DNA of 64,000 nucleotides from Candidatus Omnitrophota bacterium (GTDB lineage: Bacteria > Omnitrophota > Gorgyraeia > Aquiviventales > Aquiviventaceae), in assembly GCA_030697665.1 (NCBI GenBank), contig JAUYPJ010000037.1, forward strand, positions 28,089 to 92,088. The letters run 5' to 3'. Made by a program: the position numbers and the translations under genes. This document shows positions 7,737 to 63,717 of this stretch, in pieces. Position 1 is the stretch's first letter. Each line of letters begins with the position of its first letter. The notes beneath the pieces were generated by a model. It was not told the origin of the DNA and searched no databases. It was given only the letters and a program-made list of their open reading frames with translations.

Positions 7737-8573
7737 TTAGCGAATGATCTCCACGTTGGCGTATGGATGGGTCGTCATCACTTCAGGGAGATCGGAGGGT
7801 TCAGCCCGTTGGGCGACCGGAAATTCCTCCGGGACCATCGGGTGGATGTTGCGCATCTTTCGCTGAGAAGGCCAGGCGAGCCAGACCCGCTCGAACCAGC
7901 CGTCGTGGACCTGATCGGCGACCGAGAAGGTTGAGATCTTCTGCCGCATCTTGGCCTCCGACCTGGCGTACGAGAAATGGTAGAACACGCACCGCTCGGG
8001 TGGAACGAGGTGGCGTGGACCTGGGCTGTTGGTCTTGTTGTCTCCGACGAACCTCGTCTCATGGGGAAACGGCAGGCCCAGGATGCGCCTCGCGCGATGA
8101 ATCTTAAAGACCCTCCAGGGCGTCCACTTCATGACGTCCGGCGGGATGCGGTAGGCGAAGCTCCTCCAGAAGATAACGCACTTGATGTGGAACGTGCCCG
8201 CATCGGGGTGGGCACGGATCTCATCCAGCAGCGCATCAAGATGGTCCGGCCGGTACACCTCGTCCCCATCAACCAGAAAGTAGTAGTCGAATCCATGCTC
8301 GAGACAGTACGCCATGCCGGCCTGGCGATGCGCCACCTCCGTGGCCCATGTTCCGGTCTGGACAACCACGTTCGGATCCTGCCGCGCCAAGGCTCGAACC
8401 ATGTCCTCTGTCCGGTCAGGAAGAAATGGAGCCGGCTGGAGTGACCCGCTGCGATTCCATGGCTGACGGTTCACGTTGACCACCACCTGGTCAACGTGGC
8501 GGCGTACCGACCGAATCGAGTAGGCGATGTACTCTTCCTCGTTGTACACGGAGTAGACGGCGGCGATTTTCAT
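7737..8573 (-). CDS. GT2-like glycosyltransferase
   Basis: SVYNEEEYI, FLVDGDEV, YHFSYARS. Confidence 0.75.
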   Translation of the reverse strand: MKIAAVYSVYNEEEYIAYSIRSVRRHVDQVVVNVNRQPWNRSGSLQPAPFLPDRTEDMVRALARQDPNVVVQTGTWATEVAHRQAGMAYCLEHGFDYYFLVDGDEVYRPDHLDALLDEIRAHPDAGTFHIKCVIFWRSFAYRIPPDVMKWTPWRVFKIHRARRILGLPFPHETRFVGDNKTNSPGPRHLVPPERCVFYHFSYARSEAKMRQKISTFSVADQVHDGWFERVWLAWPSQRKMRNIHPMVPEEFPVAQRAEPSDLPEVMTTHPYANVEIIR

Positions 8574-8674
8574 CCCACCACCTGGCTGTCGCGGCGGGTG
8601 GGGCGAGATTCACGGCAGGGCATGAACCCGCCGCGTCTGCGCCGCAGGCGCAGGCAGCCAGGTGGTGGGATCAT
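8570..8674 (-). mobile_element. ATGA-bounded inverted-repeat relay cassette, copy 1; 34-aa mini-ORF MIPPPGCLRLRRRRGGFMPCRESRPTRRDSQVVG
   Basis: IR ATCCCACCACCTGGCTG / CAGCCAGGTGGTGGGAT; ATGA at both ends overlapping the upstream stop and the downstream start; mobility is inferred. Confidence 0.75.
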
Positions 8675-11346
8675 GCGCGCCGAGGGACCGAGCGCTCCCA
8701 GACCTTCGCCCACTTGAGCAGCTCAATCCCTGCGTAGAATTCGGCGAAGACCAACCCGTGGAGGCCCTCACGGTAGCCAGCCTTCTTGACATAGCTCTTC
8801 CAGAACGTCTTCCAGGGCCTGCGCCAGATCTGACGCCTCAGATCGCGCTCAGCCTGCGGCCCGAGCCTCCGGAGGAGCTCTTCGGCTTGTAGCGTCGTGT
8901 AGCGGTTGTGCCGCGCGACGAACGACGAGAGATCCTCGCATGGATGGTGTTCCACATCGGCCGCCAGCTCCCCCACCGTCCCCCGGATGACCGGACGCTC
9001 GTGCACCACCCCTTCGTACACGGCCCGGTCCCGGCGCACCAGATTTGGAACGGTATAGTACCACCCGCCGTAGCGCATGGGACGATTGAGCAACACGCTG
9101 CGACGATAGAACGAGAAGGCGGCATGAGGGCTCTGGGCTTGAAGCAGCCGCTCCATCGAAGCACGAAACCCCGGCGTGACGACGTCGTCGGCGTCGATCT
9201 GCAGGACCCACTCGCCATGGGCGTGCTGCATCCCCAGGTTGCGGTCGGTGGCAAAGCTGCCGTCAAACGCATGGGACACCACCGTCGCCCCAAACGACCG
9301 GCAGATCTCCGGCGTTCGGTCGGTGCTGGCGCCATCCACGACAATGATCTCGTCCGCCCAGCGCACGCTCTCGAGGCATCGGGCGATCCGTGGCTCCTCG
9401 TTCTTGGTCAGCACGACGACCGAGAGGGTCTCCCGCCCATCAGTTGGGAGCTCAGAACCTGTTATCTGTGGATGGGTTGTCAACGTTGAACGCTGAACGC
9501 TGAACGCTGAACTCGATGCCCAGTACTTGGCCCACTTGAGGAAATGGACCCAGGCGAAGAGCGCAGCGAAGACCAGGCCGTGCATTCCCTCGCGCCAGCC
9601 CTGCTTTTTGACGTAGGATTTCCAAAACAGCTTGAGCGGCCGGAGGAACAGCTGAGAGCGGAGCGCCCACGCCGACAGCTCACGGCGGGCCTGCCGGAGC
9701 AACCGGGCCTCCACATCGGAATAGAAGTTCTGCCGCTCCATGAACTGCGTCAGGCTCTGGAAGGGGTAGTGGTGGATTGGCTGCGCGAGATCGGCGATCG
9801 AACCACGCACCTCCAGCGTCTCATGGACGCTGTGCCCGACGTAGCGGGCCGAGGAGCGTTTGAACAGCTTCACCCCATGCCAGCCAAAGCCTCCGTAGCG
9901 CATCGGGCGCCCAAGAAAGTGGTTCAGCCGATGGACGCGGTAGGCCACGATCGTCCGCTCCTGTTGCACCGTCGAGCGAATCTCGTCCCGCAGGGGCGGC
10001 GGGATGACCTCATCCGCGTCCAACTGGAGGATCCACTGCCCACGCGCCGCCTCGATGCCGGCGTTGCGCTGCTCATCAAAGTCCCCCCCTGAGCGGCGCA
10101 CGATGACCGTAGCTCCGACCTGGCGGCAGTGCTCTCGCGTCCGGTCAGTGCTCTCATCGTCTACCACGACGATCTCATCCACCCAATCCAGGCTCGTGAG
10201 GCAGTTGAGGATTCTGGCCCCTTCGTTTTTCGTGATGATCACGGCGCTGATCGTCGCGCGATCGTCCATGGCGCGTCCTGGATCACCTTCCGCTTGAGGC
10301 ACATCTCCAATGTGTTCCACGGCTGCGCGATGAAGAGGCATGAATCGCTGGAGGCATCTCGCGAACCGTCCTGAGGGAGCGACGATGCGGTGAAACCGCT
10401 TCTTCTTTGTGAGGATTCGCCAGAGCACCGTGAGAGCGCGCCAGGGGCCGCTCAGGCGCACGACGGTCACCTCACGGTGTCTGGGAATGGCGAACTCGAT
10501 GGCCGGGTCACCAAACACCCAGACGCGATGCCCGTCGTTCACCAGATGCCGAATGGATGAGACGGCCCTGTCCAGGACTGGCCCCTGTTGCTCCAGGAGC
10601 ACATACGCGATCCGTTGCGGCCGCGGTCTGCGCCATTTGCGATAGAACCGCTCCCCATTCTCAAGAAACCGCTGCTCCCGGGTCGGGTCGCGCTTCGCCG
10701 TCGCGCTGCCGAGATGGTAGACATAGGCGCCTTCGGCGATCGCGCAGAAATATCCAGCCCGCCGGACGCGGAGCGAATAATCGGCGTCCTCGTAGTACAT
10801 GAACCAGAACGTCTCATCGAGGTATCCCACGCGCTCAAACACCCGCCGAGGCATCAGGAGACAGAACCCCACTGCCCCGGTCGCTTCGAGCCATCGTCCC
10901 TGAAGGGGTTGCAGTCGTCGAGCGACGTCATCCACCGTTTCGCCAGGTTGCGGATGCGCGCCGAACTCGTTGCTCATCGGATTCAGGAGACCGAGCGTCG
11001 GATGTGACGTCGCGACGTGAATCAACTCCGACAACCACCCTGCTGTCACGAGGATGTCGTTGTTGAGCACGCAGATCCAGGGGGCGCGTGTCTGCGCCAG
11101 ACCCGTGTTGATCCCGGCAGCGAACCCATCATTCTGTGGACGGCGGACAACCTCGATCTCAACCCATGGCGTCCCACGAACCTCACTGAGGTACCGCAGG
11201 GTCTCTGGCTCGCTGCTGCCGTTATCCACAATGATGAGCCGGGTGTCGAGCCTCGTGTGGAGCAGGAGGCGTTCCACCCCTGGCTTCAGCAGGTCGGCCC
11301 GATCCCACGTGAGGAGTACCAGATCACAACGCGCTGGTCTCGCCAT
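8671..11346 (-). CDS. Triple-domain GT2 glycosyltransferase fusion
   Basis: Three GT2 starts: CDLVLLTW..IIVDNGS; ISAVIITKNE..LDADE; LSVVVLTKNE..IDADD. Confidence 0.9.
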   Translation of the reverse strand: MARPARCDLVLLTWDRADLLKPGVERLLLHTRLDTRLIIVDNGSSEPETLRYLSEVRGTPWVEIEVVRRPQNDGFAAGINTGLAQTRAPWICVLNNDILVTAGWLSELIHVATSHPTLGLLNPMSNEFGAHPQPGETVDDVARRLQPLQGRWLEATGAVGFCLLMPRRVFERVGYLDETFWFMYYEDADYSLRVRRAGYFCAIAEGAYVYHLGSATAKRDPTREQRFLENGERFYRKWRRPRPQRIAYVLLEQQGPVLDRAVSSIRHLVNDGHRVWVFGDPAIEFAIPRHREVTVVRLSGPWRALTVLWRILTKKKRFHRIVAPSGRFARCLQRFMPLHRAAVEHIGDVPQAEGDPGRAMDDRATISAVIITKNEGARILNCLTSLDWVDEIVVVDDESTDRTREHCRQVGATVIVRRSGGDFDEQRNAGIEAARGQWILQLDADEVIPPPLRDEIRSTVQQERTIVAYRVHRLNHFLGRPMRYGGFGWHGVKLFKRSSARYVGHSVHETLEVRGSIADLAQPIHHYPFQSLTQFMERQNFYSDVEARLLRQARRELSAWALRSQLFLRPLKLFWKSYVKKQGWREGMHGLVFAALFAWVHFLKWAKYWASSSAFSVQRSTLTTHPQITGSELPTDGRETLSVVVLTKNEEPRIARCLESVRWADEIIVVDGASTDRTPEICRSFGATVVSHAFDGSFATDRNLGMQHAHGEWVLQIDADDVVTPGFRASMERLLQAQSPHAAFSFYRRSVLLNRPMRYGGWYYTVPNLVRRDRAVYEGVVHERPVIRGTVGELAADVEHHPCEDLSSFVARHNRYTTLQAEELLRRLGPQAERDLRRQIWRRPWKTFWKSYVKKAGYREGLHGLVFAEFYAGIELLKWAKVWERSVPRRA
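9483..9512. repeat. AACGCTG heptamer tandem repeat in the linker between GT2 domains 2 and 3
   Basis: acgttga acgctga acgctga acgctga. Confidence 0.65.
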
Positions 11347-18609: not shown

Positions 18610-20450
18610 AGTGCGTCAGTCACGCCTGCGGTCACCACCTTCCAGGTGACCCCTCTTGGCTCGCAGCATCGTTGGATATGCTGCAGCAGATCGCCGGGCG
18701 GATCGGTAATCGCGATCAGGACCTCTCGAACATGGTGCTCCTCAATGACCTTCTGTAGCTGAGCCCGCGTTCCAAACACCGGAGAGCCGTAGATCCGCTC
18801 GCCGAGCTTCCTGAGATCATCATCGAGGAACCCGACCACCCGATACGCGCCTTTGGTCTCGTATTTGAGCGAGCGTAACACACGCGCCCCCGTATCACCG
18901 GCTCCAATGATCAGCGCGGGAACGCCCTGCGTAGCCGCTCCACGGATCCACTCATCCATCAATCGCTCCAGCACACGGGAGCCGACAACCCCAAGGAAGG
19001 TGAGCATCCCGTCAATGACCAACACCGCCCTGGAATACCCCTCGAACCGCCACAGATACAGCAATCCGAGCGCAGAGAGGATTGAGCTGAGCGTGACTGC
19101 TTTCAGAATGGCCGTGACGTCGGAGAGGCTCAGGTAGCGCCAGACCCCTCGGTAGAGGCCGCCTCCTGCAAAACACGCGAGCTTGATCAGCAGGATGAGC
19201 GGCAGGGACTGGACGATGCGCTGCTGGTATTCGCCCGTCAGCGTCCCCTCAAACCGCAAGAGGTGCGCGAAGACTTAGGCGCTGCTGACAACGGAGCAAT
19301 CAACGACGATTTCAAGCAAGCGGCGTTTGTGCAGGAGCATGGTGCCGATCGGTGTCGTCGGAACAGGAAGATGTGATGGCGGCATGCCGCTGTCAGCTTG
19401 TCCCATGCGGTACACCTTCACCTGGGCAAGGTAGAGGCCGCACAGCATCAGGGCGGTCAGCACGGATGACCAGAGCGCGAGGGAGGGGAGCGGCTTGAGG
19501 GTCGTGAAGGCCAGGCTCAACAACCCGAGGCAGATGCTCGCTCCATAGAGCGCCACGACCGTCTGCCGGACGCTCAACCCGAGCACCGCCAGGCGATGCG
19601 AAATGTGATCCGTCCCTCCCGTGAAGGGATGTTGCCGATGGAGCAGACGCTGCACGGTCACAAAACAGGTGTCAAAGATCGGCACCGCCAAGACCAGCGT
19701 GGGCACCGCTAAGATACTGACGAGCTGGGTCGAATGGCGCAAGCTCCCCGTGATGGCCAGGGCGGCCAAGCTCAGCCCAAGGAAATGGCTGCCAGAGTCT
19801 CCCATGAAGATCTTCGCGGGAGGAAAATTGTAGCGCAAGAAGCCCAGACACACGCCGCTCACGATGCCCGCCAACGCCGCCACGACCCACTGGCCGCTCA
19901 GGGCGGCGTGGAGCACGTAGAACCCCGCGGCAATCGCCCCCACACCGGCCGCCAGACCGTCCATGTTGTCCAGGAGGTTGAAGGCGTTCATCACAAAGAC
20001 AAACCATAAGACGGACAGCGGAATGGAGATCCACGCCCAGTGGACGGGCACCAGCCGGATGCCGCTGAGGACGATCCCGCAGCCAATGAGCAGCTGGGCC
20101 ATCAGCTTGGTATACGGAGGAATTCGACGGAAGTCATCGACGAGCCCGAGGACAAAGACGAGGCTCACCCCCCCGAGCAGCGCCACGACCGACGGTTCCC
20201 AGGACACCCACAAGGCGGTCGTCGCGACAAACCCGATAAACATCGCGACCCCGCCCAGCCGGGCGACGACGCGCCTGCCCCAACGTGATTCCACCGGCTT
20301 GACGATCCACCCAAACCGGACGGCGGTCAACCGCACCAGGGGGGTGAGCAGCAGCGTGATGAGCAACGCCGTCAGGCCGGCCGCTCCCACGCGAGTCAGC
20401 TCCTTCGCGGTCTGCGAAAGGATCGGGCCGTCAGCGGGAAGCCAACTCAT
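18606..20450 (-). pseudogene. WecA/MraY-like UndP sugar-1-phosphate transferase fused to a CapD-type N-terminal/CoA-binding domain, interrupted by one in-frame TAA at 19275-19277
   Basis: NAFNLLDNMDGL, NFPPAKIFMGDSG, DHISHRL; reads ...VVSSA*VFAHLLRFEG... in one frame, then LYRGVWRY, IIGAGDTG, GFLDDD. Confidence 0.75.
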
Positions 20451-20602
20451 CCCACGCCCTGCGCCTCACGGCGGCTCGTCACGGTTCCTACGTAGGCCGC
20501 CCTGACGAAGACCACACGACCCTCACAGGGCACTGCCATCTCACTCCTCACGTCTTCGGGCCCCCGCCGGAGGCGGGGGGCCGGCGCAGGGCGTGGGATC
20601 AT
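20447..20602 (-). mobile_element. Relay cassette copy 2; 51-aa mini-ORF MIPRPAPAPRLRRGPEDVRSEMAVPCEGRVVFVRAAYVGTVTSRREAQGVG
   Basis: IR ATCCCACGCCCTGCGCC / GGCGCAGGGCGTGGGAT; ATGA at both ends. Confidence 0.75.
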
Positions 20603-21603
20603 CAGGATGGGCGGCCTTTGGCAGGACTGGAACACTCGGGAAGGCTCTGGCGCATGCTGTCCACCACGCTCTGGATAATCTCCTCCAAATGCATGGTGGG
20701 TTGGAAGCCGATCAGGTCGCGAACCTTGGTGGTATCCGGCACCCGCCGCGGCATGTCCTCAAACCCCTCTTCGTAGGCTTCTTCATAGGGGACGTAGACG
20801 ATGCGCGAGGAGCTCTTGGTCAGGCGGACGACGAGGTTGGCCAGCGCTTCAATGGTCACCTCTTCCTGGCTGCCCAGGTTGAAGACGTCCCCCACCGCCC
20901 GGGGATGCTCCATCAGCTTCACCAGTGCGTTCACCACATCTGTCACATGCAGGAAGCAACGGGATTGCTCCCCGCTCCCATGCACCACGAGCGGCTCCCC
21001 TTTCAGCGCCTGGCTGACGAACCGCGGGATCACCATCCCGTACGTGCCGGACTGGCGGGGTCCGACCGTGTTGAAGAGGCGGACGATGACCGTGGGGACC
21101 CCTTTCTCTCTCCAGTACACGTACGCGAGGATCTCATCCACCGCCTTCGAGGTGGAGTAGCTCCACCGGCTCTTCAGCGGCGAGCCGAGAATACGGTCGG
21201 TGTCTTCCCGAAGCGGACCGTTCGTGTTCTTGCCGTAGATCTCCGAGGTGGACGCGATCAGGACTTTTTTCCGATACCGATGCGCCATCTCCAACACAAT
21301 CTCACTCCCTCGGATGTTCGTCATCAGCGACTCAAGTGGGTGCTTGATGATCAGCTCCACCCCGACGGCGGCAGCCAGATGGAACACCACGTCGCACCGC
21401 TCGATCAACTTGTCCACCAGGGTGTCGTTCAGGATCGTCCCCACGACGAGCCGCAGATTGGGATGTCCATCGAGATGCGCGATATTTTCATATCGCCCGG
21501 TGGAGAGGTTGTCCAGCAGGGTGACGTGGTAACGCGCACGGAGGAGCCGATCCGCCAGATGTGATCCGATGAACCCCGCCCCTCCGGTGACGAGGGCCTT
21601 CAT
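20602..21603 (-). CDS. NAD-dependent nucleotide-sugar epimerase/dehydratase
   Basis: VTGGAGFIGSHL, STSEIYG, YSTSK, RLFNTVGPRQ. Confidence 0.92.
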   Translation of the reverse strand: MKALVTGGAGFIGSHLADRLLRARYHVTLLDNLSTGRYENIAHLDGHPNLRLVVGTILNDTLVDKLIERCDVVFHLAAAVGVELIIKHPLESLMTNIRGSEIVLEMAHRYRKKVLIASTSEIYGKNTNGPLREDTDRILGSPLKSRWSYSTSKAVDEILAYVYWREKGVPTVIVRLFNTVGPRQSGTYGMVIPRFVSQALKGEPLVVHGSGEQSRCFLHVTDVVNALVKLMEHPRAVGDVFNLGSQEEVTIEALANLVVRLTKSSSRIVYVPYEEAYEEGFEDMPRRVPDTTKVRDLIGFQPTMHLEEIIQSVVDSMRQSLPECSSPAKGRPS

Positions 21604-25289: not shown

Positions 25290-26056
25290 CGCGAAATGTC
25301 TGTGGGAGCGGCCTGCAATCGGCACCTGAGCAGTCGAGCGATGATCTTCACGCCGTCCCACCACCTGATCTTCTTTCCTTCCCGTACGTTCCTGGGATGG
25401 TACGAGATGGGAACCTCCGTGATCCGGAATCGCCTCAGGAGCAGGTGGGCCGTCATCTCCGCCTCGATGTCAAAACCTGAAGCCATCAGCGGGAGCTGGC
25501 GCACGACCTCGGCGCGGAAGACCCGATGCGCCGTGTCGACATCCGTGAGCCGCGATCCGTAGAGGAGGTTGGTGACGCCGATGATGATGTTGTTCGCCAC
25601 GATCGTGCCGAGGCGCACTGACGAGGACGGCTGGAGGAAGCGCGACCCATAGACGACGTCGCTCTCCCCGCGGAGGATCGGCTCCAACAACTGTGGGTAC
25701 TCTTCCGGCAGATACTCAAGGTCGGCATCCTGAATCAGGATGAGGTCTCCGGTGGCGCGGGCAAGCCCCGCCCGCACCGCCGCCCCTTTGCCCTGACGCA
25801 CCGGGAAGGTCTGCACCGTGATGATCTGTTGGGCCTCCAGCGCCTTCAGGATCGTGCCCGTCCCATCCCCCGATCCGTCGTCCGCGACGATGATCTCCCG
25901 CTCCATCGCCAGCGGGACGGTGAGGACGCGACGGATGACCTCTTCGATCGTTGAGCGCTCATTGTAGACCGGGATGATGATGCTCAGCTTCGCAAGACGC
26001 CGCACGCTCACCAGTGCGCCGCTCAGAGCCATCGACGTGTGGGCCTGGCGCGTCAT
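25286..26056 (-). CDS. GT2 polyprenol-phosphate glycosyltransferase (DPM1-like)
   Basis: [43 protein letters not shown]. Confidence 0.9.
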
Positions 26057-43980: not shown

Positions 43981-45177
43981 TCACACCGCACGGGGCATGC
44001 GGGGCGAGGACCGGCCGATCCACGCCCCGAGGCGATGGGACAACAACCGTACCACGTACTTCTGCCGGCCGATCCGGTGGACCAGCTCCACAAGGAACCG
44101 ACGCACCGCCGGCACGAACATCGGTGACAGCGCCAGACACACGGGATACACCCACACCGTAGGGGACCGTGCCATCCGCCAGCCGCCGCGCAATGCAAAC
44201 CGGTACACCGGCAGGCTTTGGTAGCGTCGCTGAAGAATCCCCATCAGAGCCCCATGGCCCATCCACCAGTACACCCGGTGACGCAGATGAGCGGCCTCAA
44301 GCTGTGTCAGCGCCACGACCCGTTCCACCCGCTGCAGGAACGCCTCCAGCAAATCCAAGGCCTGCTGGACGCTCGCCTGGGATGGGCACGTGTCCCAAAA
44401 CCCCTCCTCCATCCGGAGGACCTGACTCAGCCGCTGGGCTGTTCCCTCAGCATCCAACGACGCCACCAAGGCGTGATGGGCCCGCCGCGCGTTCTCCTGC
44501 TGAACCGCGGCATGGGTTCGGCTCTGCTGCGCCTCATGGACACGTCTGATGATCAACGGCGTTCGGAGGACGACCGCGCTCCAGCGTATTCTCGCCATCG
44601 TGCACCAGAGCGCGTAGTCCTCGCAGAATTTGAAGGATTCATCATAACTGCCCGCAGCCAATGCGGCTGCCCGGCGGAACATCGCCGTCGGGTGGTCAAT
44701 CGGAGAGGCGTACGTAAGGACCGCGCCGAGGAACGAGCCGTAATCCTGGACCTGGCGCATGCCGACGACAGCGGTCTGCCGCCCATCCAACTCCATGTGA
44801 TACAGCCAGGATCCCACCAGCCCCACGTCGGCATGCCGGTCCAACACGGCGACCTGCTGCCGCAGTCGGTCGGGCAGGCACCGGTCATCCTGGTCAAGAC
44901 GGGCGAGGTACGGCGCGCGGGCCAAGACAAGACCCCGATTCAATGACCACACCTGCCCCATGTTACGCTCGTTGCGCACCAGCCGAATCCGGGGATCCGG
45001 ATAGCGCTGGATACAGGCCACCGACTCATCCGTGCTGGCGTCATCGATGATGAGCAGCTCAAAGTCGGTGAACGTCTGGGCGAGAACGCTCTCAATCGCC
45101 TCAGCGAGATACGGCATCCCGTTGTACACCGGCAACAGCACCGTCACGCGCGGATTCGAAGGCGCGTTGGTCGTCAT
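43981..45177 (-). CDS. GT2 glycosyltransferase
   Basis: VLLPVYN, IDDASTD, RLDQDD, CEDYALW. Confidence 0.9.
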   Translation of the reverse strand: MTTNAPSNPRVTVLLPVYNGMPYLAEAIESVLAQTFTDFELLIIDDASTDESVACIQRYPDPRIRLVRNERNMGQVWSLNRGLVLARAPYLARLDQDDRCLPDRLRQQVAVLDRHADVGLVGSWLYHMELDGRQTAVVGMRQVQDYGSFLGAVLTYASPIDHPTAMFRRAAALAAGSYDESFKFCEDYALWCTMARIRWSAVVLRTPLIIRRVHEAQQSRTHAAVQQENARRAHHALVASLDAEGTAQRLSQVLRMEEGFWDTCPSQASVQQALDLLEAFLQRVERVVALTQLEAAHLRHRVYWWMGHGALMGILQRRYQSLPVYRFALRGGWRMARSPTVWVYPVCLALSPMFVPAVRRFLVELVHRIGRQKYVVRLLSHRLGAWIGRSSPRMPRAV

Positions 45178-45290
45178 CCCACGCCCTGGCTGCCCCGCCT
45201 ATTGGCGGGGCGAAACGTCAATGAGAGAAACACGGGGCACCGTTTCGCGGCTCCGCCTTCAGGCGGAGCCCAGCTAGGGCGTGGGATCAT
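45174..45290 (-). mobile_element. Relay cassette copy 3; 38-aa mini-ORF MIPRPSWAPPEGGAAKRCPVFLSLTFRPANRRGSQGVG
   Basis: IR ATCCCACGCCCT(A/G)GCTG; ATGA at both ends; two internal GC hairpins. Confidence 0.75.
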
Positions 45291-46222
45291 CGAGTTGGCG
45301 TTGGCATCCGCGTAAAGTGCTCCAGGAGGTGTCGGACGGCTCGCCGCTCCATGGCAGCCCGTGAGGCGCGCGTCAGTGAGGCGACGTGCGGAGTACAGAG
45401 CACCTGGGGCAATCTTATCAACGGCCCCCTAGAGGGTTCCTGCTCACACACATCGAATGCGGCTGCCGCCAGATGCCCGGATCGGAGCGCCGCCTCGAGG
45501 GCCTGCTCATCAACGAGGTATCCCCGCGAGGTGTTGATGAGCCGACCGCCGGCCTTCATCTGCCCCAACTCTGCGCGGCCCATCAGCACACCTTCTTGTC
45601 GAGGACGGTTCGCGTGGAGCGACACCACATCAGCCTCAGCCAATAGTCGGGGTAGCGGACACCAGTGGGTCGTCTCCGGAACCTCGTGGGGTGCGACGAA
45701 TGGATCTGACACGAGGACGCGTGGCCCAAAAATCCGGAGATACCGTTCCACCGTCCTGCCGATCCGACCAAACCCTACCAGGCCCACCGTCCATTCAGCG
45801 AGCAGCCAGCCGGGACGCTTGACCCACGAGCCCTGTCGGCTGTCTGCGAGGTGTTGGGGCAGGTTCCTCGCCAAGGCCAGGATCATGGCCATGGTCATCT
45901 GTGCAACGGGCTCGGTCACTTCGTCAGGTGTCGTGTACACGGCAATACCTTTCCGGCGCGCCACATCGAGATCGATGGCGTCCATTCCCACGCCGCATCG
46001 GCTGATGCATTGCAGGTGGGGCAGCGCTTCGAGGACCGTGGCATCGTAGGGCTCTACACCCGCCACCACCGCGTCAGCGTCACGAAGTCCCTGGACGAGG
46101 TCCTCTGATGTTAAGCGGCGTCCCAGCTCGTTGACACGAACCTCCCAGCCGGCATCGAGCAAGAGCTGCTTCGGCGTCAGATCGAACTCGCAGAACTGCT
46201 GCAGCGCGACATACACGATCAT
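45287..46222 (-). CDS. D-isomer 2-hydroxyacid (SerA-like) dehydrogenase
   Basis: ISRCGVGMD, GLVGFGRIG, INTSRG, TPHVAS. Confidence 0.88.
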   Translation of the reverse strand: MIVYVALQQFCEFDLTPKQLLLDAGWEVRVNELGRRLTSEDLVQGLRDADAVVAGVEPYDATVLEALPHLQCISRCGVGMDAIDLDVARRKGIAVYTTPDEVTEPVAQMTMAMILALARNLPQHLADSRQGSWVKRPGWLLAEWTVGLVGFGRIGRTVERYLRIFGPRVLVSDPFVAPHEVPETTHWCPLPRLLAEADVVSLHANRPRQEGVLMGRAELGQMKAGGRLINTSRGYLVDEQALEAALRSGHLAAAAFDVCEQEPSRGPLIRLPQVLCTPHVASLTRASRAAMERRAVRHLLEHFTRMPTPTR

Positions 46223-46350
46223 CCCCCCACCTGCTGGTTGGCCGAAGGCCGGTCGCTGTCGCATTCGTCTTCCTGGGGCGACAGCGACCGCTTCGCCTTC
46301 GGCGTGATGTGACGAGCAGGACGGCGAAGCCCAGCAGGTGGGGGGATCAT
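46219..46350 (-). mobile_element. Relay cassette copy 4; 43-aa mini-ORF MIPPPAGLRRPARHITPKAKRSLSPQEDECDSDRPSANQQVGG
   Basis: IR ATCCCCCCACCTGCTGG / CCAGCAGGTGGGGGGAT; ATGA at both ends. Confidence 0.75.
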
Positions 46351-47132: not shown

Positions 47133-47169
47133 CAGCCCGCGCTCGCCATCAACGGACGCACCCGCATGC

Positions 47170-51987: not shown

Positions 51988-52929
51988 TCAGCTTCTTGCC
52001 TCTTCGACTGGCTGCCATGAGTCGCGCTGCATCACCCCGCTCGAACGGCTCCATTGGAACTGCGCCACCACCCGCGGCCCCGCGTCGCGCGCCCTGGACA
52101 ATCGTACGGCATCCCAGGCCTGTCGCGCCGCGTGCTTCAACGCGTAGTCCCAGGTGTACCTCGGATTCTGGTCCGGACGATCCACAATCGTCACTCGCCC
52201 AGGATGCGCTGTGCGTCTGAACACGCCAAGGGCTGTCTCCGCGGTTCCTGTCGAGGCCACGAACAGCTCCTTGGGCACAAACCGGCTGTGCCTCCCGCCG
52301 AGGACCGTGTGGCTTCGGTAGACAGCGACCTCAGCTTCCGGCGCTTCGGCCATGACCGCGTCGATGAGCTCCTGAAGGTTCACCACGATAAACGGCATCC
52401 ACCCGTCATAGTGATATTGGCAGGAGTGTTCTGGATTCCACTCGGTCGGGCCGACGTCCCGCGTGCGGCATCGGACGATGACCGCTTCCTCTGCGATTCG
52501 GATGAGCTCAGAGAGGAAGGCGAGGGGCTCGGCCTGGTGCTGGATGACGTCCTTGGCGTACACGATCTGCGGATGCTCCGGAAGACCACGGGCCCGGAGG
52601 GTCGCGCTGACGGACGCGGCGGGGTCGCTCACGACGAATGTCCCCTCCGGGTACTTCTGTTTGGCTCGCGCGATGGCCGGACCGGAGACGTCCAGACCGC
52701 AGTAGCGCGCGCGGGGATAGCGACGGCGCAGGTAGCGGTAGAACTCTCCGGTGGCGCATCCGAGTTCCAGCAGGTCCAGCGGACGATCCGTGGCAACCCG
52801 CTCGTTCAACAGCCGGACGTCGTTGAAGCCTTCCTGGTTACGGACCAGGTTGCGCCGATCAAGCTGCCAGCGTCCGTCGAATGCCTCCGCATGCCGCTGG
52901 TGTTGCCAATCGTCGTACCACGAGTTCAT
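51988..52929 (-). CDS. Class I SAM-dependent methyltransferase
   Basis: LLELGCATG, YCGLDVS, DVIQH. Confidence 0.82.
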   Translation of the reverse strand: MNSWYDDWQHQRHAEAFDGRWQLDRRNLVRNQEGFNDVRLLNERVATDRPLDLLELGCATGEFYRYLRRRYPRARYCGLDVSGPAIARAKQKYPEGTFVVSDPAASVSATLRARGLPEHPQIVYAKDVIQHQAEPLAFLSELIRIAEEAVIVRCRTRDVGPTEWNPEHSCQYHYDGWMPFIVVNLQELIDAVMAEAPEAEVAVYRSHTVLGGRHSRFVPKELFVASTGTAETALGVFRRTAHPGRVTIVDRPDQNPRYTWDYALKHAARQAWDAVRLSRARDAGPRVVAQFQWSRSSGVMQRDSWQPVEEARS

Positions 52930-53069
52930 CCCACCACCTGTTCATGGGCCGGTTCAATCATATCGAGAGATTGCAGCGAACGAACCGGCCCTGGTTCGCT
53001 GCAGGGTGGTTTCAAGCTATCGGGCGAACCGCTCCGCCTACGGCGGAACTGAACAGGTGGTGGGATCAT
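52926..53069 (-). mobile_element. Relay cassette copy 5; 47-aa mini-ORF MIPPPVQFRRRRSGSPDSLKPPCSEPGPVRSLQSLDMIEPAHEQVVG
   Basis: IR ATCCCACCACCTGTTCA / TGAACAGGTGGTGGGAT; ATGA at both ends; several stop triplets occur but none in the relay frame. Confidence 0.78.
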
Positions 53070-53824
53070 GCCGGCACGCGCGCCAGACGAGGACCCTGTT
53101 CAGAGAGACGCTCCGGCTGTCGATGCGCTTCAACCTGCTCTAGCTTCGCGGCGTCCCGGAGGAACTGCCGGACCGTCTCCTTGCTGTAGGGATGCACCAG
53201 CATCCCTTCCACCAACGCTGGGACCGCGGTGACAATATCCGCGCCCGCCTCAAACCATTCCACAATGTTCAGGATTTCGCGGGTGGACCCGACGATGATC
53301 TTCGCGGGGCTGCCGAACGCGTCCAAGAGGCTGCGCAGCCGGCGGATCTCCTGACAGGCGTTGTAGCCCATGTTGTTGACCCGCCCCCCGAACAACGAGA
53401 CATAGGTCGCACCCGCCATCGCCGCCAGCAGACACTGCTGTGCGCTCATCATGGCGGTCACGTTGACGCGAATGTCGTGTCGCGTCTCCAGCTCGTGCAC
53501 GAGCCGCAAGTTCTCCGTCCCGCCCCCCACGTCGTGAATCGGAATCTTGACGTTGATGTTGGGCGCCCAGCTGACAAACCTCTGGGCCTGCTCGAGCATA
53601 CCGTCCTGGTCGTTGGTGGTCACTTCCACCGAGACGGGAAGCGGCTCCACGAGCTTGGCAATGTGCCGGCAGCGCTCCTCAATTCCCGGCCAGCCTCCTC
53701 GCACGCCTTCTTTCGCCAGGATCGTCGGGTTAGTTGTGACGCCGCGGATGATCCCCAACGCATGATACTTCTGAATCTCTTCCAGCCTGCCTGTGTCCAA
53801 GAAGATCCCCGTCAAGCTTCTCAT
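53066..53824 (-). CDS. Transaldolase/fructose-6-phosphate aldolase family
   Basis: IFLDTG, GVTTNPT, NVKIP, VNVTA, YVSLFGGR. Confidence 0.9.
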   Translation of the reverse strand: MRSLTGIFLDTGRLEEIQKYHALGIIRGVTTNPTILAKEGVRGGWPGIEERCRHIAKLVEPLPVSVEVTTNDQDGMLEQAQRFVSWAPNINVKIPIHDVGGGTENLRLVHELETRHDIRVNVTAMMSAQQCLLAAMAGATYVSLFGGRVNNMGYNACQEIRRLRSLLDAFGSPAKIIVGSTREILNIVEWFEAGADIVTAVPALVEGMLVHPYSKETVRQFLRDAAKLEQVEAHRQPERLSEQGPRLARVPA

Positions 53825-53871
53825 TGCTTCCACCTTTCTTCAGGACTGCGCCTGGGCCATGGGGTCCGCCG

Positions 53872-58304: not shown

Positions 58305-58319
58305 CGTCGGTCCTTCCGA

Positions 58320-59882: not shown

Positions 59883-60871
59883 CCAGCACCCTCCTGTTTT
59901 GATGACACCTTCTTCCCGACCAGCCGTGCAAATGAACTCAAGCCCTGCCGCTGCAAGAACGCCTGCAGCGCCTCGTGGGTTTGCGCATCGGCCTCGATGA
60001 GCTGTCGCTCGAAGCGTGACACCGGCAGCGACGGATTGTGCTGGAGGTGGGCGCGAACCACCTCGACGTCCAGCACACCAGGTGTACTGACTTCGATCAA
60101 CGTCAACCCGGCTTGTGTCAGGAGGCGTGAAAGACCCTGGAGGCTAAAACAGTTCGTGCGATCCGGGGGACAGAGATACAGGTTGGCAAGCCCCAGCACC
60201 GCCAAGTCAAATCCCGAACACACCAACGCCGTCACAAACAGTAATCCGCCCTCCTCCATCCGATTGACCACTCCCTGCAACAGCGCCACCGGATCATCGA
60301 CACGATCCAGGGATTCCAGCAGAATCGCGGCGTGAACCCGAGGAGCATCAGCGCAGTTGCCGGATCCCGTGGCCACGGTCATTTCATCAACCATCAGCAC
60401 GTCTGAACACATCCCGCTATCCTTCAGCAGATGCGTGAAGGTGCTTGGGGGTGTGGCGCCCTCCAGGACAATCGGCTGACGAACCCCCTGCAGTCGGAGC
60501 GTATCCCGAATCCATTCCAGTTTGGGTGTGTAGACGTGATCGGTCCGCGACTGCGCCAATCCTGGGTAGAACCCCTCAGACGAAAACCGGTGACGGCTCA
60601 CGTCCTGCAGCAACCTCGCCCACGACACGGCGTCTGGCAGCTCCTCCAGAAAGAGGCTCCCGCTCTCCTGACACCGCAGATAGCGCAGCCCACCGATCTC
60701 GCCGAACGGCTCAAGCGATGCGCCACCGATCGGTGACCGCTGACGACGCCTGGTGGGGCCGCGGAGCGCCTGTCGCGTCATCTCGAGACAGTAGGCGCGA
60801 TACCGCAGCAGCCCCTCCAGGGGCTTGACAGAGGACAAGGGGAAACTCGCGCTGGTCTGGATGGTTCTCAT
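59879..60871 (-). CDS. Methyltransferase-like protein with degenerate motifs
   Basis: ESLDRVDDP, GFDL..LG, PPDRTNCFS, TPGVLDV; canonical SAM motif I not intact. Confidence 0.6.
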   Translation of the reverse strand: MRTIQTSASFPLSSVKPLEGLLRYRAYCLEMTRQALRGPTRRRQRSPIGGASLEPFGEIGGLRYLRCQESGSLFLEELPDAVSWARLLQDVSRHRFSSEGFYPGLAQSRTDHVYTPKLEWIRDTLRLQGVRQPIVLEGATPPSTFTHLLKDSGMCSDVLMVDEMTVATGSGNCADAPRVHAAILLESLDRVDDPVALLQGVVNRMEEGGLLFVTALVCSGFDLAVLGLANLYLCPPDRTNCFSLQGLSRLLTQAGLTLIEVSTPGVLDVEVVRAHLQHNPSLPVSRFERQLIEADAQTHEALQAFLQRQGLSSFARLVGKKVSSKQEGAG

Positions 60872-61890
60872 GGCACCGTCCGTTTCGTGGCCTGGCGCTC
60901 GGCCACGGCGTAGACATCCCGGATGACCTGCATGACCCGTTGGGCCTCCTCGAGCGTCCCGTGGGTGGCCGGACGTCCTTCGTGGGCGGCCAGAAGAAAT
61001 TCATTGACCTCTTTGTCCCATGACTCGTCACGGTCGAAGTGGATGATTTCCTCGCGCGGATTGCCCAGCGCCAGGGCCTCATCTTCGAACTGGCGCTTGC
61101 CGATGACGAGCTGCTCACGGCCGTAGCTACCGGTCTGTGACAACAACCCACTGGCCACCAGGTAGCCATTGCGACAGCCGACCTCGATGCGGAACGTGTG
61201 TTTCCAGAACGTCGCGGAAGAATGGAGGAACGCCGGCACCCCCTGCTCGGAGCGGAGCAGGACGAAGGCGTTGTCTTCCAACCCCGTTCCCCAGAAGGAA
61301 TCCGCCAGGACGGCATCGACGACGGTGAGCGGCCCAAGGAAGAGGTGAAACAGATCCAGCATATGGATGCCCTGATCCAGCAAAATGCCCCCGCCGGCGA
61401 TGTCCGGATTGGCGCGCCAGCTCTCACGGTACCGGATGCCGCCTGACTTGCCGTAGGTCCCCTTGAGGTACAGCACCTCGCCTAGGCCGCCCTCGCCGAT
61501 GAGCGACTTGGCCGCCTGGACAGACGGGTGCAACCGGTGGTTGAACCCGAACACCAGCGTATGATTAGGGACCGCGGCCGCGGTCTCGGCGATCCGACAG
61601 AAATCCTCCCAGTTGCGTCCCGGCGGCTTTTCACAAAACACCCGGCGGCACCGGCGCAGCCCTTCCACGCACAGATCCGCGGTGACATTATTCGGCGTAC
61701 AAACGAACACCACGTCAGTGTCGTCCCACGGAATGGGAGCTGCCGGAGGGAGCAGCACCCCATCGAGCCCGACGGTCGATGGATCCACGCCGTGATCCAC
61801 GATGGTGATGCCGCGCACCAGGGGATGTTGACGCAGGACCTGATAGCGGATCTTGCCCATATACCCATAGCCAAACAGGAGACAGTTCAT
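60868..61890 (-). CDS. Gfo/Idh/MocA oxidoreductase
   Basis: GYGYMG, CEKP, GFNHR, GGGILLDQGIH. Confidence 0.92.
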   Translation of the reverse strand: MNCLLFGYGYMGKIRYQVLRQHPLVRGITIVDHGVDPSTVGLDGVLLPPAAPIPWDDTDVVFVCTPNNVTADLCVEGLRRCRRVFCEKPPGRNWEDFCRIAETAAAVPNHTLVFGFNHRLHPSVQAAKSLIGEGGLGEVLYLKGTYGKSGGIRYRESWRANPDIAGGGILLDQGIHMLDLFHLFLGPLTVVDAVLADSFWGTGLEDNAFVLLRSEQGVPAFLHSSATFWKHTFRIEVGCRNGYLVASGLLSQTGSYGREQLVIGKRQFEDEALALGNPREEIIHFDRDESWDKEVNEFLLAAHEGRPATHGTLEEAQRVMQVIRDVYAVAERQATKRTVP

Positions 61891-62033
61891 CCCCCCACCT
61901 GCTGGAGGCTCCGCCCGAGGCGGAGCCGTGGGTTGGCTTCACGTGATAAAGCCGGCTGCCAGCCAACCCTGGCAGTGCCGGTCACTGCGTTTGTAGCGAT
62001 GGCGGCACTGCCGCCAGTAGGTGGGGGGATCAT
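61887..62033 (-). mobile_element. Relay cassette copy 6; 48-aa mini-ORF MIPPPTGGSAAIATNAVTGTARVGWQPALSREANPRLRLGRSLQQVGG
   Basis: IR ATCCCCCCACCT(A/G)CTGG; ATGA at both ends. Confidence 0.75.
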
Positions 62034-63613
62034 CCCACCGATGCCCCCGGACATCCAACCGCCTGGAGGAAACGATCAATGGCTGCGGCATCCACGGCCC
62101 TCGTGTAGCGATTCACGTACTCCACCGTCCTGCGCCATTGCTGCATGGCCTGTGCTTCATCCACGGTCAGGTACTGCTGCAGCGCCTCGCTCATCGCTTC
62201 AGGCGAATCAACACGTTCACGCCAACCCGTCACCTCGAACAGGGGATCCACATCCGGGTAGTCCGCGTCCTGGAGGTAGATCGGCTTCAATCCGTGGAGG
62301 ACCGCGTACAAGACGGCGGAGGAGCCGCGGTAGAGCACCACCGATGAGCGCGCAAAGTCCTCGCCGATCGACGGGCGATCAGAAACCTCCATGTTCGGCA
62401 ATGCGGACGGCTCGCCGGCCAGGTGCGGACGCAGGCGATGAAACGGCATCGCGGGGTGACACCGCAAGATGAAGCGGTGATCGGTCGCCAGCGACGCCGC
62501 CTGCATGGCAAAATTGAACAGGAGCTTGGCCTCACGGATCACCCCAGTCTCCGGAACCACCAGCACCGTCCGCCGCTGGAACTGCGGGCTGGGCGCCGCT
62601 GGGGCGTGATGGTCGCTGCGCCGGAAGGTCCCGAAGGACACCAGGCGGCTCCCAAGCGGTTGGTGCCCGGACGCCATCATCTGCAGCGGGATCTCTCCCA
62701 GGCAGAGCACGACATCGGGTGTTGAGCGCTCCCAGGAGTTGCGGTTCGGGGACAAGAGCGACAACGAGTGCGGCATGATGACCGTATGTTGGTATCCCAC
62801 GGTGACGCATGTCGCCTCGGCAGCTTTCGCCCCATGCCAGGCGGGCTTCTCCCAGGGCTGCCCCTCATAGAGCGTGACGAAGACCTTTGCCCCCCAGGTC
62901 TTCACGGCCTTGCGCGCAATGGAGAAGTGCAAGATGTTGCGCACGGTAATGGGCTGCAGGCTGTCCAGGCAGGCCGCCGCCGCCACCCTTGCCAGCGACG
63001 GCTGCTCGGCGCGCTGCGCCAGGCGACGCAGGGCCACGGCCGTGGCGAATTGGCGGACGGCCGTCACCAGCGGCGCCCAGATCGGCACCAGCAGTTGCTC
63101 CGGAACGGTGCGGATCGTCGGGCGTCGTAGCAGCGTTTTCGCAAAGGCCGTGTCAAGCCGCTCCCGCGTGTCGCCGCACAACACGAGGCAGCTGATCCCG
63201 CGGGCTTCCAGTTGCTGCGGCAGCGTCCCGTAATAGAAATCCTCCGTCCGATGGAGGGCCTCCGGACCGAAGCCCCATGTTTTCAAGATGACGGTTGCCG
63301 GCTCGCGCGTGAGACGCCGGAGGTCGCGCCACACCTGCGGCTTCACCCACAACAGGCCGAGGCTCTCACGAGCGGCGAACAGGACGCATCTCACCCACCG
63401 GGCCACCAGACCCAACGGCGACGGAAGGGTCAGCGGTGCCGGCCCCATCAGCCATAGGTGGTCAGGAGGCACCGCGTGCCGGGGATGAACGGTGGAGAGT
63501 CCCAGGACGGGCAACCGCGGGCACAGACGTCGCACCTCATACATCAGCTCAGTCAATGCGGCGTAGCGCTCGAGCCACCGACGAGGCTCCGCTGGCGTGG
63601 CAGATGCGATCAT
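62030..63613 (-). CDS. Hypothetical protein with a GT-B-like C-terminus (possible ulosonate transferase)
   Basis: YEGQPWEK, GYQH, LRCHP, YRGSSAVLYAVL.GLKP. Confidence 0.55.
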   Translation of the reverse strand: MIASATPAEPRRWLERYAALTELMYEVRRLCPRLPVLGLSTVHPRHAVPPDHLWLMGPAPLTLPSPLGLVARWVRCVLFAARESLGLLWVKPQVWRDLRRLTREPATVILKTWGFGPEALHRTEDFYYGTLPQQLEARGISCLVLCGDTRERLDTAFAKTLLRRPTIRTVPEQLLVPIWAPLVTAVRQFATAVALRRLAQRAEQPSLARVAAAACLDSLQPITVRNILHFSIARKAVKTWGAKVFVTLYEGQPWEKPAWHGAKAAEATCVTVGYQHTVIMPHSLSLLSPNRNSWERSTPDVVLCLGEIPLQMMASGHQPLGSRLVSFGTFRRSDHHAPAAPSPQFQRRTVLVVPETGVIREAKLLFNFAMQAASLATDHRFILRCHPAMPFHRLRPHLAGEPSALPNMEVSDRPSIGEDFARSSVVLYRGSSAVLYAVLHGLKPIYLQDADYPDVDPLFEVTGWRERVDSPEAMSEALQQYLTVDEAQAMQQWRRTVEYVNRYTRAVDAAAIDRFLQAVGCPGASVG

Positions 63614-63717
63614 CCCCCCACCTGCCTGCCAGCCGGAGGCTGGCGAACAGCCGCGCGTCGAGTACTCCATGTGTTCGCGGCTCGCCTCTGGCGAGCCCAG
63701 GTAGGTGGGGGGATCAT
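63610..63717 (-). mobile_element. Relay cassette copy 7; 35-aa mini-ORF MIPPPTWARQRRAANTWSTRRAAVRQPPAGRQVGG
   Basis: IR ATCCCCCCACCT(A/G)CCTG; ATGA at both ends. Confidence 0.75.

Follow-up and report, generated by a model that had tools for sequence, protein, structure and literature searches.

A MITE-like repeat family at operon stop/start junctions in Omnitrophota, with a predominantly open reading frame onto the next start codon

The window analysed here, a stretch of 64,000 nucleotides from a Candidatus Omnitrophota contig (JAUYPJ010000037.1), holds seven copies of a short inverted repeat, which is a MITE-like, non-autonomous mobile element of 85-166 nt. Its copies lie between co-directional genes, in the same direction as these genes and almost all at gene starts, and most carry a mini-ORF that stays open from a start codon at the upstream stop to a TGA overlapping the ATG of the next gene. 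Our best reading, which we hold at a probability of about three in four, is that there has been selection for translation through the insert, mostly as a relay in which ribosomes would stop and restart and, rarely, as an in-frame fusion. The original prediction had proposed such a relay from the window and missed the mobile, MITE-like nature of the repeat, in which a 3-bp duplication of TGA creates both ATGA junctions.

Anatomy, insertion sites and mobility

All seven window copies lie on the minus strand and read NTG/ATCCC…GGGAT/GA there. Copy 1 (8570..8674; 105 nt, ATGA-to-ATGA period 101, mini-ORF of 34 aa plus TGA, predicted fold -72.3 kcal/mol, z -8.5) joins two GT2 glycosyltransferase genes: its left ATG (8674-8672) overlaps the stop TGA (8673-8671) of an 891-aa gene (8671-11346), and its right TGA (8572-8570) overlaps the ATG (8573-8571) of a 278-aa gene (7737-8573). 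Copy 2 (20447..20602; 156 nt, period 152, 51 aa, -96.8 kcal/mol, z -6.7) ends in the ATGA that starts a 391-aa GT4 gene (19275-20450). It departs from the earlier statement that the upstream stop is the element's own TGA: here the epimerase gene (20602-21603) stops one codon before that TGA, as TGATGA, with a 1-nt overlap with the ATG of the mini-ORF. Copy 3 (45174..45290; 117 nt, period 113, 38 aa, -76.2 kcal/mol, z -7.6) lies between a 2-hydroxyacid dehydrogenase gene (stop 45287-45289) and a 398-aa GT2 gene (43981-45177); judged by eye, a similarly laid-out copy is found at pyrH/frr of another genus (L018).

Copy 4 (46219..46350; 132 nt, period 128, 43 aa, -87.2 kcal/mol, z -9.7) separates a cytidylyltransferase gene (46347-47267) from a dehydrogenase gene of 311 codons starting at the right ATG (46222-46220), and copy 5 (52926..53069; 144 nt, period 140, 47 aa, -82.3 kcal/mol, z -8.9) a transaldolase-family gene (53066-53833) from a methyltransferase gene (51988-52929). 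Copy 6 (61887..62033; 147 nt, period 143, 48 aa, -95.4 kcal/mol, z -7.6) follows a gene with its stop at 62030-62032 and precedes a GFO/IDH/MocA oxidoreductase gene (60868-61890). Finally, copy 7 (63610..63717; 108 nt, period 104, 35 aa, -65.7 kcal/mol, z -5.9) is preceded by a gene that runs past the window end (199 codons before the TGA) and followed by a 527-codon gene from ATG 63613-63611. Annotation is affected by the elements: longest-ORF calls run through them and misplace starts, at GTG 46366 instead of 46222 after copy 4 and at 63670 instead of 63613 after copy 7, and the mini-ORFs go uncalled.

The arm motif is enriched in the window, with 21 matches against 8.8 expected, a number reached in 0 of 100 shuffles. 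A solitary arm-like motif, GTCCCACCACCTG (one mismatch; 25355..25367, plus strand), is paired with no partner arm and is not a full element. Rfam 15 gave no match at gathering score within the window. A single ~60-kb operon around the copies, as had been assumed, is not established: the ~50 genes are almost all co-directional, but gaps of ~570-730 nt separate stop-to-stop ORFs around 26.3-27.0, 35.6-36.2 and 56.0-56.6 kb.

In the genome of this window (G000), arms were detected without any flank condition, giving 70 arm pairs, 54 of them with canonical flanks; the canonical copies measure 85-160 nt arm to arm and the non-canonical pairs span 72-291 nt. The element has terminal inverted repeats, as in a MITE, with arms of 14-17 nt (TCCC[AC][AC][ACG][AC]CCTG … CAGG….GGGA; consensus ATGATCCCACCaCCTg … CAGGtGGTGGGATGA), and its size leaves no room for a transposase gene. 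The target duplication is 3 bp and nearly always TGA, with identical non-TGA flanks of 3 nt in six copies of this genome (TTA twice, CTA, CGA, TGG twice). Copies with GTG, TTG or CTG on the left still have ATGA on the right, hence the A belongs to the element. We propose that the target is the TGA of NTGA, a start codon plus A, which would most often be the 4-nt stop/start overlap between operon genes. Insertion would give N-TGA-[TCCC…GGGA]-TGA, in which the upstream stop is kept, the former start codon comes to open the mini-ORF, and the last A of the element together with the duplicated TG would supply the downstream gene with a new ATG that TGA overlaps.

Occupied and empty versions of orthologous sites exist at rpoB/rpoC and pyrH/frr. 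At rpoB/rpoC, 18 junctions are readable in the family, with nine empty ATGA overlaps and three filled sites (G000, G010 and G017). Of 25 genomes, five carry a copy at pyrH/frr; these copies belong to different subfamilies and all keep the relay frame, and in G002 the junction is an empty ATGA overlap. Among named records, Frr identity is 69% to an 'uncultured Planctomycetales bacterium' MAG and 53% to 'Candidatus Omnitrophota'. Most copies are single, but tandem pairs or triplets with one common TGA occur, as a pair at rpoB/rpoC of G017 and at G005:C121:231-557. Further essential-operon junctions that are occupied, with names read from the translated flanks, are pyrB/dihydroorotase and dxs/gltX. 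ORFs of at least 50 codons flank 36 of the 54 copies of the window genome on both sides and 11 more copies precede a gene; in the relatives, 79 of 119 copies have ORFs on both sides. A search of sequencing runs with the rpoB/rpoC copy returned one strong DNA run, two partial DNA runs, and RNA runs with a small share only. Reads of four DNA runs assembled into fragmentary contigs, with joints inside the element that skip 64-82 nt and most likely represent other copies with common arms.

Searches for Y1_Tnp, DDE_Tnp_1 and DDE_Tnp_4 identified no autonomous partner or transposase. No matching arms surround the four DDE_Tnp_1 genes of the window genome and no DDE_Tnp_4 was found, in draft MAGs where IS copies are often unassembled. 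Y1_Tnp (PF01797) does not co-vary with the element, being present in 12 of 18 element-positive and 5 of 6 element-negative genomes of the family. A TNA-type duplication of 3 bp resembles that of some IS5-group and Harbinger-type elements.

Reading frame and openness of the copies

Recomputed from the coordinates, the seven periods in the window are all 2 mod 3, as had been claimed, and between left ATG and right TGA all seven mini-ORFs run for 34-51 aa without a stop. Stops do occur in other frames: frames 0, +1 and +2 hold 1, 2 and 3 stops in copy 3 and 1, 3 and 4 in copy 5, the lone frame-0 stop being the terminal TGA. The peptides are likewise alike only at their arm-encoded ends, MIPPP or MIPRP at the start and QVVG, QGVG or QVGG at the end.

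When frame and stops were tabulated for all genomic copies, the proposed relay was not refuted. The relay frame is found in 48 of the 54 canonical copies of the window genome (binomial p = 3e-17), and 47 of these 48 are open, where shuffled interiors give an expected fraction of 0.48 (p = 2e-14). In five further genera of the family 94 of 119 copies are in this frame, with 90/94 open against 0.46 expected, and in 12 genomes of other families in the phylum it is kept by 59/65 among the copies listed. A distant, AT-richer family (interior GC 0.44) has 28/30 copies in frame, of which 26/28 are open against 0.16 expected; its remaining two frames are open in only 2/28 and 9/28. Over the window genome and these five genera together, 137 of 142 relay-frame copies are open, compared with ~47% in the two remaining frames and in interiors that were shuffled.

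The prediction that every full element is a relay is true of the window and too strong beyond it. Among 173 copies, 137 are open relays, eight are open fusions and 28 break the rule: stops interrupt five copies in the relay frame and five in the fusion frame, and 18 have the third frame. Some of these misfits sit between long genes (C53:27786, C57:6103, C99:17537), so the mini-ORF relay is not obligatory everywhere.

Length classes of a few founders, or structural limits on the hairpin, might have produced the regularity as a by-product, without any selection exerted through translation. Length is indeed shared within subfamilies (clusters of 9, 8 and 7 copies). Furthermore, the copies of the window genome that have no long ORF at the right ATG, in two of which the TGA is followed after 0-1 nt by the real start, are also in the relay frame (7/7), so that part of the bias may stem from in-frame source copies rather than from selection at each site. 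However, the 173 copies fall into 106 interior-sequence clusters, 80 of which are wholly in frame, and 62 of the 80 singletons, whose interiors resemble no other copy, are in frame; amplification of a few copies therefore does not account for the bias. The window genome alone has 24 distinct copy lengths, 18 of them in frame. Stop depletion is moreover limited to frame 0, and the left codon is kept: it is ATG in 39, GTG in 11, TTG in 2 and CTG in 2 of the 54 copies, that is, N is A or G in 50/54. The base before TGA in the relatives (n = 119) is A in 103, G in 10, C in 5 and T in 1, and before ordinary TGA stops the proportions are A 0.32, G 0.26, C 0.26 and T 0.16. Copies flanked by TGG on both sides (n = 2), where there is no stop, switch to the fusion length, each being an 80-nt open in-frame N-terminal extension. 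Already disfavoured by these points, the by-product explanation seems to us highly improbable.

Under selection for translation through the insert, the few copies of length 2 mod 3 would continue directly into the gene and extend its product at the N-terminus. The three such copies of the window genome are all open and in frame into the downstream gene. Of the 11 TTA-flanked copies in 24 family genomes, a small control set for selection at the site as against inherited length, 5 are 2 mod 3. A given interior occurs in both orientations, with 161 related pairs in the same orientation and 33 in the opposite one, and only 55 of the 137 open copies would remain open if flipped.

That the mini-ORFs encode functional small proteins could be argued from frames that are open and begin with start codons. 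We consider it extremely improbable, given that the peptides have only the arm-encoded five and four residues in common and that the 106 interior clusters among the 173 copies are unrelated. Interiors, and hence peptides, show no relationship from one subfamily to the next, so what is constrained is openness rather than peptide sequence, in agreement with the original prediction.

Predicted RNA fold and the passage of ribosomes

In the predicted fold the arm stem closes in all 54 canonical copies of the window genome, with a mean MFE of -84 kcal/mol and a mean z of -7.4; the seven window copies range from -65.7 to -96.8 kcal/mol and from z -5.9 to -9.7. The SD-like hexamer is wholly paired in 51/54 copies, and the predicted stem takes in the SD-like right arm along with the initial AU of the downstream AUG. 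Six genomes of the family have no assembled 16S 3' end: G000 holds positions 9-754 only and G002 9-902 only, and a search of G012, G016, G022 and G045 gave nothing. The SD/anti-SD reading therefore assumes the usual CCUCC tail, and its sole support comes from empty pyrH/frr junctions, which carry GGAGG-type spacers.

We suggest that in a transcript running through the element the arms would close a very stable multi-hairpin stem, in which the anti-SD-like left arm pairs with the SD-like AGGUGG of the right arm and with the AU of the next AUG, and that the left start codon alone would stay unpaired. A ribosome that comes from the upstream gene, or is recruited by the original initiation signals, may then start at the left NTG, unwind the insert and translate all of it, terminate on the UGA that overlaps the downstream AUG, and restart there. 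A broken frame would carry a fitness cost, and only copies with an arm-to-arm length of 1 mod 3 and a stop-free frame would persist. The frame and stop bias thus supports the earlier proposal that selection acts on ribosome passage, with translation of the mini-ORF and re-initiation as its probable steps.

Two further readings of the same fold give the host a larger part. One is a phylum-wide coupling lock exploited by the host, in which near-invariant arms bury the downstream start in a stem of -66 to -97 kcal/mol; we regard it as unlikely, with a small but real chance. The anti-SD-like left arm always encodes Met-Ile-Pro-(Pro/Gln/Arg)-Pro, and the right arm combines the SD-like sequence with the AUG. 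With that start buried, genes such as rpoC and frr would be translated solely by ribosomes passed along by the gene before them, and the proline-rich start would make the hand-over sensitive to translation capacity (EF-P). Because such a copy could not decay without polar damage, it would be kept by selection, in the manner of an addictive insert.

The other, which we consider distinctly unlikely, is that the repeats have been domesticated and kept by the host as a regulatory device, not a tolerated parasite, whose locked stem binds translation of the downstream gene strictly to that of the upstream gene; in a variant, the arm-encoded Met-Ile-Pro-Pro-Pro start could tie coupling to translation capacity. 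It would agree with arms that are nearly invariant across the families of the phylum while interiors take on the base composition of the host, with the copies in essential operons, and with the predicted pairing of the SD-like arm and the AU. However, most related genera lack an insert at the same junctions, the element is patchily distributed (in 15 of the 301 phylum genomes sampled), one site can hold different subfamilies in different genera, and conserved arms are equally expected of a transposase recognition site.

Stems might instead be cut by duplex-cleaving nucleases, the open frame being irrelevant to expression. Nuclease processing has been reported for other bacterial MITEs, and the closing stems are long and perfect (median 16 uninterrupted pairs), a type of duplex that such enzymes cut. 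We find this very unlikely, as it leaves the frame, the absence of stops and the conservation of the left start codon unexplained.

Known repeats and what the family may reveal

By analogy, the closest known system is the mycobacterial interspersed repetitive unit (MIRU). Supply et al. reportedly described MIRUs in 1997 and read them as translationally coupled inserts, so the idea itself is not new. In reviews, MIRUs are short, apparently mobile operon repeats which insert at start codons, with an internal ORF coupled to the downstream gene by a 4-nt overlap, ends overlapping the flanking genes, short direct repeats at filled sites, and matching empty sites in a relative, and they are interpreted as insertions with little effect on expression (PMC3184786, PMC12548453). 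The present family likewise has an internal ORF and ends that overlap the upstream stop and downstream start, 137 of 173 copies being open relays from NTGA to the next ATGA. Set against the descriptions of MIRUs, it differs in its long perfect inverted arms and multi-hairpin stem of -66 to -97 kcal/mol, its duplication of 3 bp instead of 4 bp, its SD/anti-SD-like arms, hypervariable interiors and in-frame fusion alternative, and its occurrence in an uncultivated phylum-level lineage rather than in Mycobacterium.

Rickettsia palindromic elements (RPE), as outlined in these sources, are palindromic repeats of ~150 bp with an open frame compatible with the host gene (PMC10969869, PMC3184786). Our copies are also palindromic and keep an open frame; however, RPEs are described as in-frame fusions inside genes, and here 137/173 copies are separate stop/restart mini-ORFs between genes. 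With only 8/173 open fusions, assignment to this intragenic class was rejected. Correia, ERIC, Nezha and Chunjie MITEs are summarised as small, multi-copy elements with terminal inverted repeats, target duplication and stable RNA folds, often within transcription units (PMC3184786, PMC10969869), and Chunjie as having 9-bp direct repeats and 21-bp arms (PMC3184786). The family shares their size, inverted ends, target duplication, copy number and stable fold and, unlike these MITEs as described, has a duplication that regenerates stop and start and a frame-conserved mini-ORF from junction to junction.

REP/BIME repeats, in the accounts cited, are 20-40 bp long and mobilised by RAYT (Y1) transposases without target duplication (PMC2817692, PMC3733652). 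They too are GC-rich palindromic repeats between genes, and identity with them was rejected because the present elements are 85-166 nt with a target duplication and do not track the presence of a Y1 transposase. In the synthetic 'bicistronic design', according to the same kind of summary, a leader ORF brings ribosomes to the downstream start and cancels repressive RNA structure (PMC12548453); delivery by a short ORF is common to both, whereas the engineered leader is neither mobile nor palindromic. No description of this repeat family was found in the literature, judged from titles and abstracts.

Relative to MIRUs as described, the evidence here is cleaner and comes from more lineages, and it adds the variants of hairpin/SD masking and in-frame fusion. 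The family would amount to a natural experiment on translational coupling, replicated in hundreds of separate, independent insertions across several families of an uncultivated phylum, in which very stable hairpins between essential genes such as rpoB and rpoC appear to survive almost only if ribosomes can read them onto the next start codon. This would be population-scale sequence evidence that termination-reinitiation, or unwinding by ribosomes, matters for operon expression, and native copies would be ready constructs for asking how much structure a coupled ribosome can overcome. It may also show how a selfish element becomes translationally transparent, through a 3-bp target duplication that rebuilds both a stop and a start codon.

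Frame and openness of the copies

The draft genome G000 (2.18 Mb in 148 contigs, 64% G+C, 94.75% complete) contributes about 50 genes to the window, nearly all on the minus strand, and seven intergenic inserts on that strand, each of the form NTG|ATCCC…GGGAT|GA. In this genome the window corresponds to C59:28089-92088. The genes flanking these inserts are of polysaccharide-synthesis type, and their products include GT2 and GT4 glycosyltransferases, an NAD-dependent epimerase, a cytidylyltransferase, a methyltransferase and a transaldolase-family protein. The copies lie at 8570-8674, 20447-20602, 45174-45290, 46219-46350, 52926-53069, 61887-62033 and 63610-63717 (all minus strand), with ATGA-to-ATGA periods of 101, 152, 113, 128, 140, 143 and 104 nt, respectively. 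As the original prediction held, all seven periods are 2 mod 3, all seven frames leading from the left NTG into the right TGA are stop-free (34-51 aa), and the seven peptides resemble each other at their arm-encoded ends only. Copy 2 requires a small correction: its upstream gene ends one codon before the element's own TGA (TGATGA). The proposed single operon of 60 kb is unsupported because stop-to-stop gaps of about 570-730 nt occur near 26.3, 35.6 and 56.0 kb.

Longest-ORF listing carries two minus-strand genes, 45287-46366 and 62030-63670, upstream through an element; the element junctions imply starts at 46222 and 63613, respectively. An eighth copy is found on the same contig about 10 kb ahead of the window (G000:C59:17668-17809; 142 nt, GTG start, relay frame, open), flanked by ORFs of 489 and 266 codons. 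A separate feature of the window is a pair of short arrays, with ATAGTC and one variable base as their 7-nt unit, at 730-761 and 2893-2938, at both ends of a gene of 684 aa (832-2886). Comparable heptamer arrays (AATTGCG-like, AATCGAC-like) occur on another G000 contig (C79, around 8749), and genome G042 has them in its 356-nt pyrH-frr spacer (L033).

Arm detection over the whole G000 genome with unconstrained flanks gave 70 arm pairs, of which 54 have the canonical flanks. The genome-wide tabulation of frame and stop content bore out the pattern of the window: 48/54 canonical copies have the relay frame (p = 3e-17). Of these 48, 47 are open, against an expectation of 0.48 from shuffled interiors, with the two remaining frames stop-free in 24/48 and 21/48. 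The pattern TGATCCC…GGGATGA is present in 18 of the 24 other genera of the family. Among 301 sampled genomes of the phylum, 12 that belong to four further families carry it too; a control pattern read backwards had 0 matches in all genomes searched. Five other genera of the family have 94/119 copies in frame, 90 of these 94 open and each other frame open in 44/94. Outside the family, 59/65 copies are in frame among the matches listed. The sharpest test of the bias is an AT-richer family (interior GC 0.44; 30 of 49 matches examined), in which 28 of the 30 copies listed are in frame and 26/28 are open versus 0.16 expected, the other frames being open in 2/28 and 9/28.

Could this bias be an echo of a few amplified copies? 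Clustering by interior sequence shows that it is not: 106 clusters result from the 173 copies of six genomes (80 wholly in frame, 21 wholly out, 5 mixed), and 62 of the 80 singletons are in frame. The bias may be partly inherited from in-frame source copies, because all seven G000 copies without a long ORF at the right ATG are in frame too; in two of the seven, the true start comes 0-1 nt after the TGA. The TTA-flanked control class comprised only 11 copies.

Insertion sites and element anatomy

In its behaviour the element resembles a MITE whose insertion duplicates 3 bp of the target. Six G000 copies have identical non-TGA flanks (TTA twice, CTA, CGA and TGG twice). The right junction stays ATGA even where the left codon is GTG, TTG or CTG, therefore the A is part of the element, whose own sequence runs TCCC…GGGA. 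A given interior is found in either orientation (161 related pairs in the same orientation versus 33 opposite), and neighbouring tandem copies have one TGA in common. Tandem arrays comprise three elements at G005:C121:231-557 and two at the rpoB|rpoC junction of genome G017 (L209), adjacent elements sharing one TGA. The copies in G005 all have the third, non-relay frame, two of the three with stops inside. A search for a mobilising enzyme found none. In a distant family (genomes G230, G236, G107, G210 and G072; loci L237-L266) the arms are identical (TGATCCCACCACCT…) and the interiors AT-rich (GC 0.44), thus arm conservation is independent of host base composition. What preserves these near-invariant arms may be a transposase or, alternatively, their SD/anti-SD and start/stop content.

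Filled and empty orthologous sites were found at two gene pairs. Nine of the 18 readable rpoB|rpoC junctions of the family are plain ATGA overlaps, e.g., in genome G002 (gcATGAgcccc; RpoC identity 93%), and three are filled (G000, G010 and G017, the last with a tandem pair). At pyrH|frr, the element is present in 5 of 25 genomes, in different subfamilies and in the relay frame in all five; G002 is again an empty ATGA overlap, and most remaining junctions are short spacers, several with GGAGG-type motifs. The right-hand ATG is the frr and rpoC start as defined from element-free orthologues. G000 itself retains roughly 174 ATGA overlaps without an element. The rpoC gene of genome G004 (L220, G004:C84) starts with ATGAGCCCACCACCTG (MSPPPVQ…), an N-terminus which looks like an absorbed solitary left arm. 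The 106-nt pyrH-frr spacer of G017 (L026) is filled by two copies of another small palindromic repeat, AGTCCCACCTGATTTGC … GCAAATCA … GGTGGGACT, possibly a second family of repeats whose arm letters are related.

Insertion at the TGA within an NTGA yields N-TGA-[TCCC…GGGA]-TGA. The upstream gene's stop survives, the old start codon becomes that of the mini-ORF, and the element's terminal A with the duplicated TG forms a new ATG, which keeps the previous frame of the downstream gene. Start codons are strongly over-represented at the left position: ATG or GTG occupies it in 50/54 canonical G000 copies, and A or G precedes TGA in 113/119 copies of the relatives, with frequencies before ordinary TGA stops of 0.32 (A), 0.26 (G), 0.26 (C) and 0.16 (T). 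About 36 of the 54 G000 copies are flanked on both sides by ORFs of at least 50 codons, and another 11 precede a gene whose upstream neighbour ends elsewhere; in these 11, the gene's own initiation signals would pass to the mini-ORF. One of them (C132:44771) has an SD-like GGGAGG 7 nt ahead of its GTG. The copy at G000:C104:27435-27570 has no upstream gene and lies ahead of a gene of 421 codons; its mini-ORF ATG is preceded by TTGTAA, 17 nt, TATAAT and then 6 nt, an arrangement which would fit a leaderless transcript beginning at the mini-ORF.

Predicted fold and exceptions to the proposed relay

In the predicted RNA fold the arm stem closes all 54 canonical G000 copies, with at least 12 of 14 terminal positions paired. 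The mean MFE of the G000 copies is -84 kcal/mol (mean z -7.4), and the seven window copies range from -65.7 to -96.8 kcal/mol (z -5.9 to -9.7). The left AUG is predicted to be unpaired. The right arm has an SD-like AGGUGG 4-5 nt upstream of the AUG. This arm is predicted to pair, together with the first two bases of that downstream AUG, with the left arm, which has an anti-SD-like core; in 51/54 predicted folds every base of the hexamer is paired. This SD/anti-SD reading assumes the usual anti-SD, since the 16S 3' end is unassembled. A ribosome starting at the left codon and translating the entire insert would unwind the stem and terminate at the UGA overlapping the downstream AUG. Should the frame be wrong or contain an early stop, the downstream start would stay locked, or ribosomes would pass over it out of frame. 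This course of events is inferred. Selection for translation through the insert, as originally predicted, is supported by the comparative evidence.

The exceptions to this rule are informative. The 173 copies comprise 137 open relays, 8 open fusions (mini-ORFs continuing in frame into the downstream gene), 5 relay-frame and 5 fusion-frame copies with stops, and 18 third-frame copies, so that 16% break the rule; some of these lie between long genes. The three G000 copies whose length is 2 mod 3 are all open and in frame into the downstream gene. The two TGG-flanked copies, both 80 nt, have no stop codon at either junction and are open N-terminal extensions (MVPPP…) of their genes. A misfit subfamily consists of G000:C53:27786-27923 (138 nt) and G000:C99:17537-17671 (135 nt), which have internal stops, are out of frame and lie between long genes; both have an internal SD-like GAGGG motif and ATG, and the internal ORF of the latter ends 9 nt ahead of the downstream ATG.

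Relation to known repeats

Among known systems the mycobacterial MIRU comes closest. A 2011 review (PMC3184786) describes for it tetranucleotide direct repeats, sites both filled and empty, and ORF ends overlapping the adjacent genes; the concept of a coupled operon repeat is therefore already known. Unlike MIRU, the present element has long perfect inverted arms that are SD-like and anti-SD-like, a very stable predicted multi-hairpin fold, a 3-bp duplication that by itself restores both stop and start, interiors that are hypervariable, an alternative fusion form, and a host range both different and wide. Rickettsia palindromic elements have the frame-compatible theme in common with it but are located inside genes, and Chunjie and other MITEs belong to the same general class. 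The element does not fit a REP/RAYT identity. A literature search at the level of titles and abstracts found no description of this element family.

The original observation is confirmed and strongly generalised beyond the window, and the relay interpretation is supported at the level of sequence comparison. The element copies are a natural test bed for translational coupling and, as such, of solid interest.
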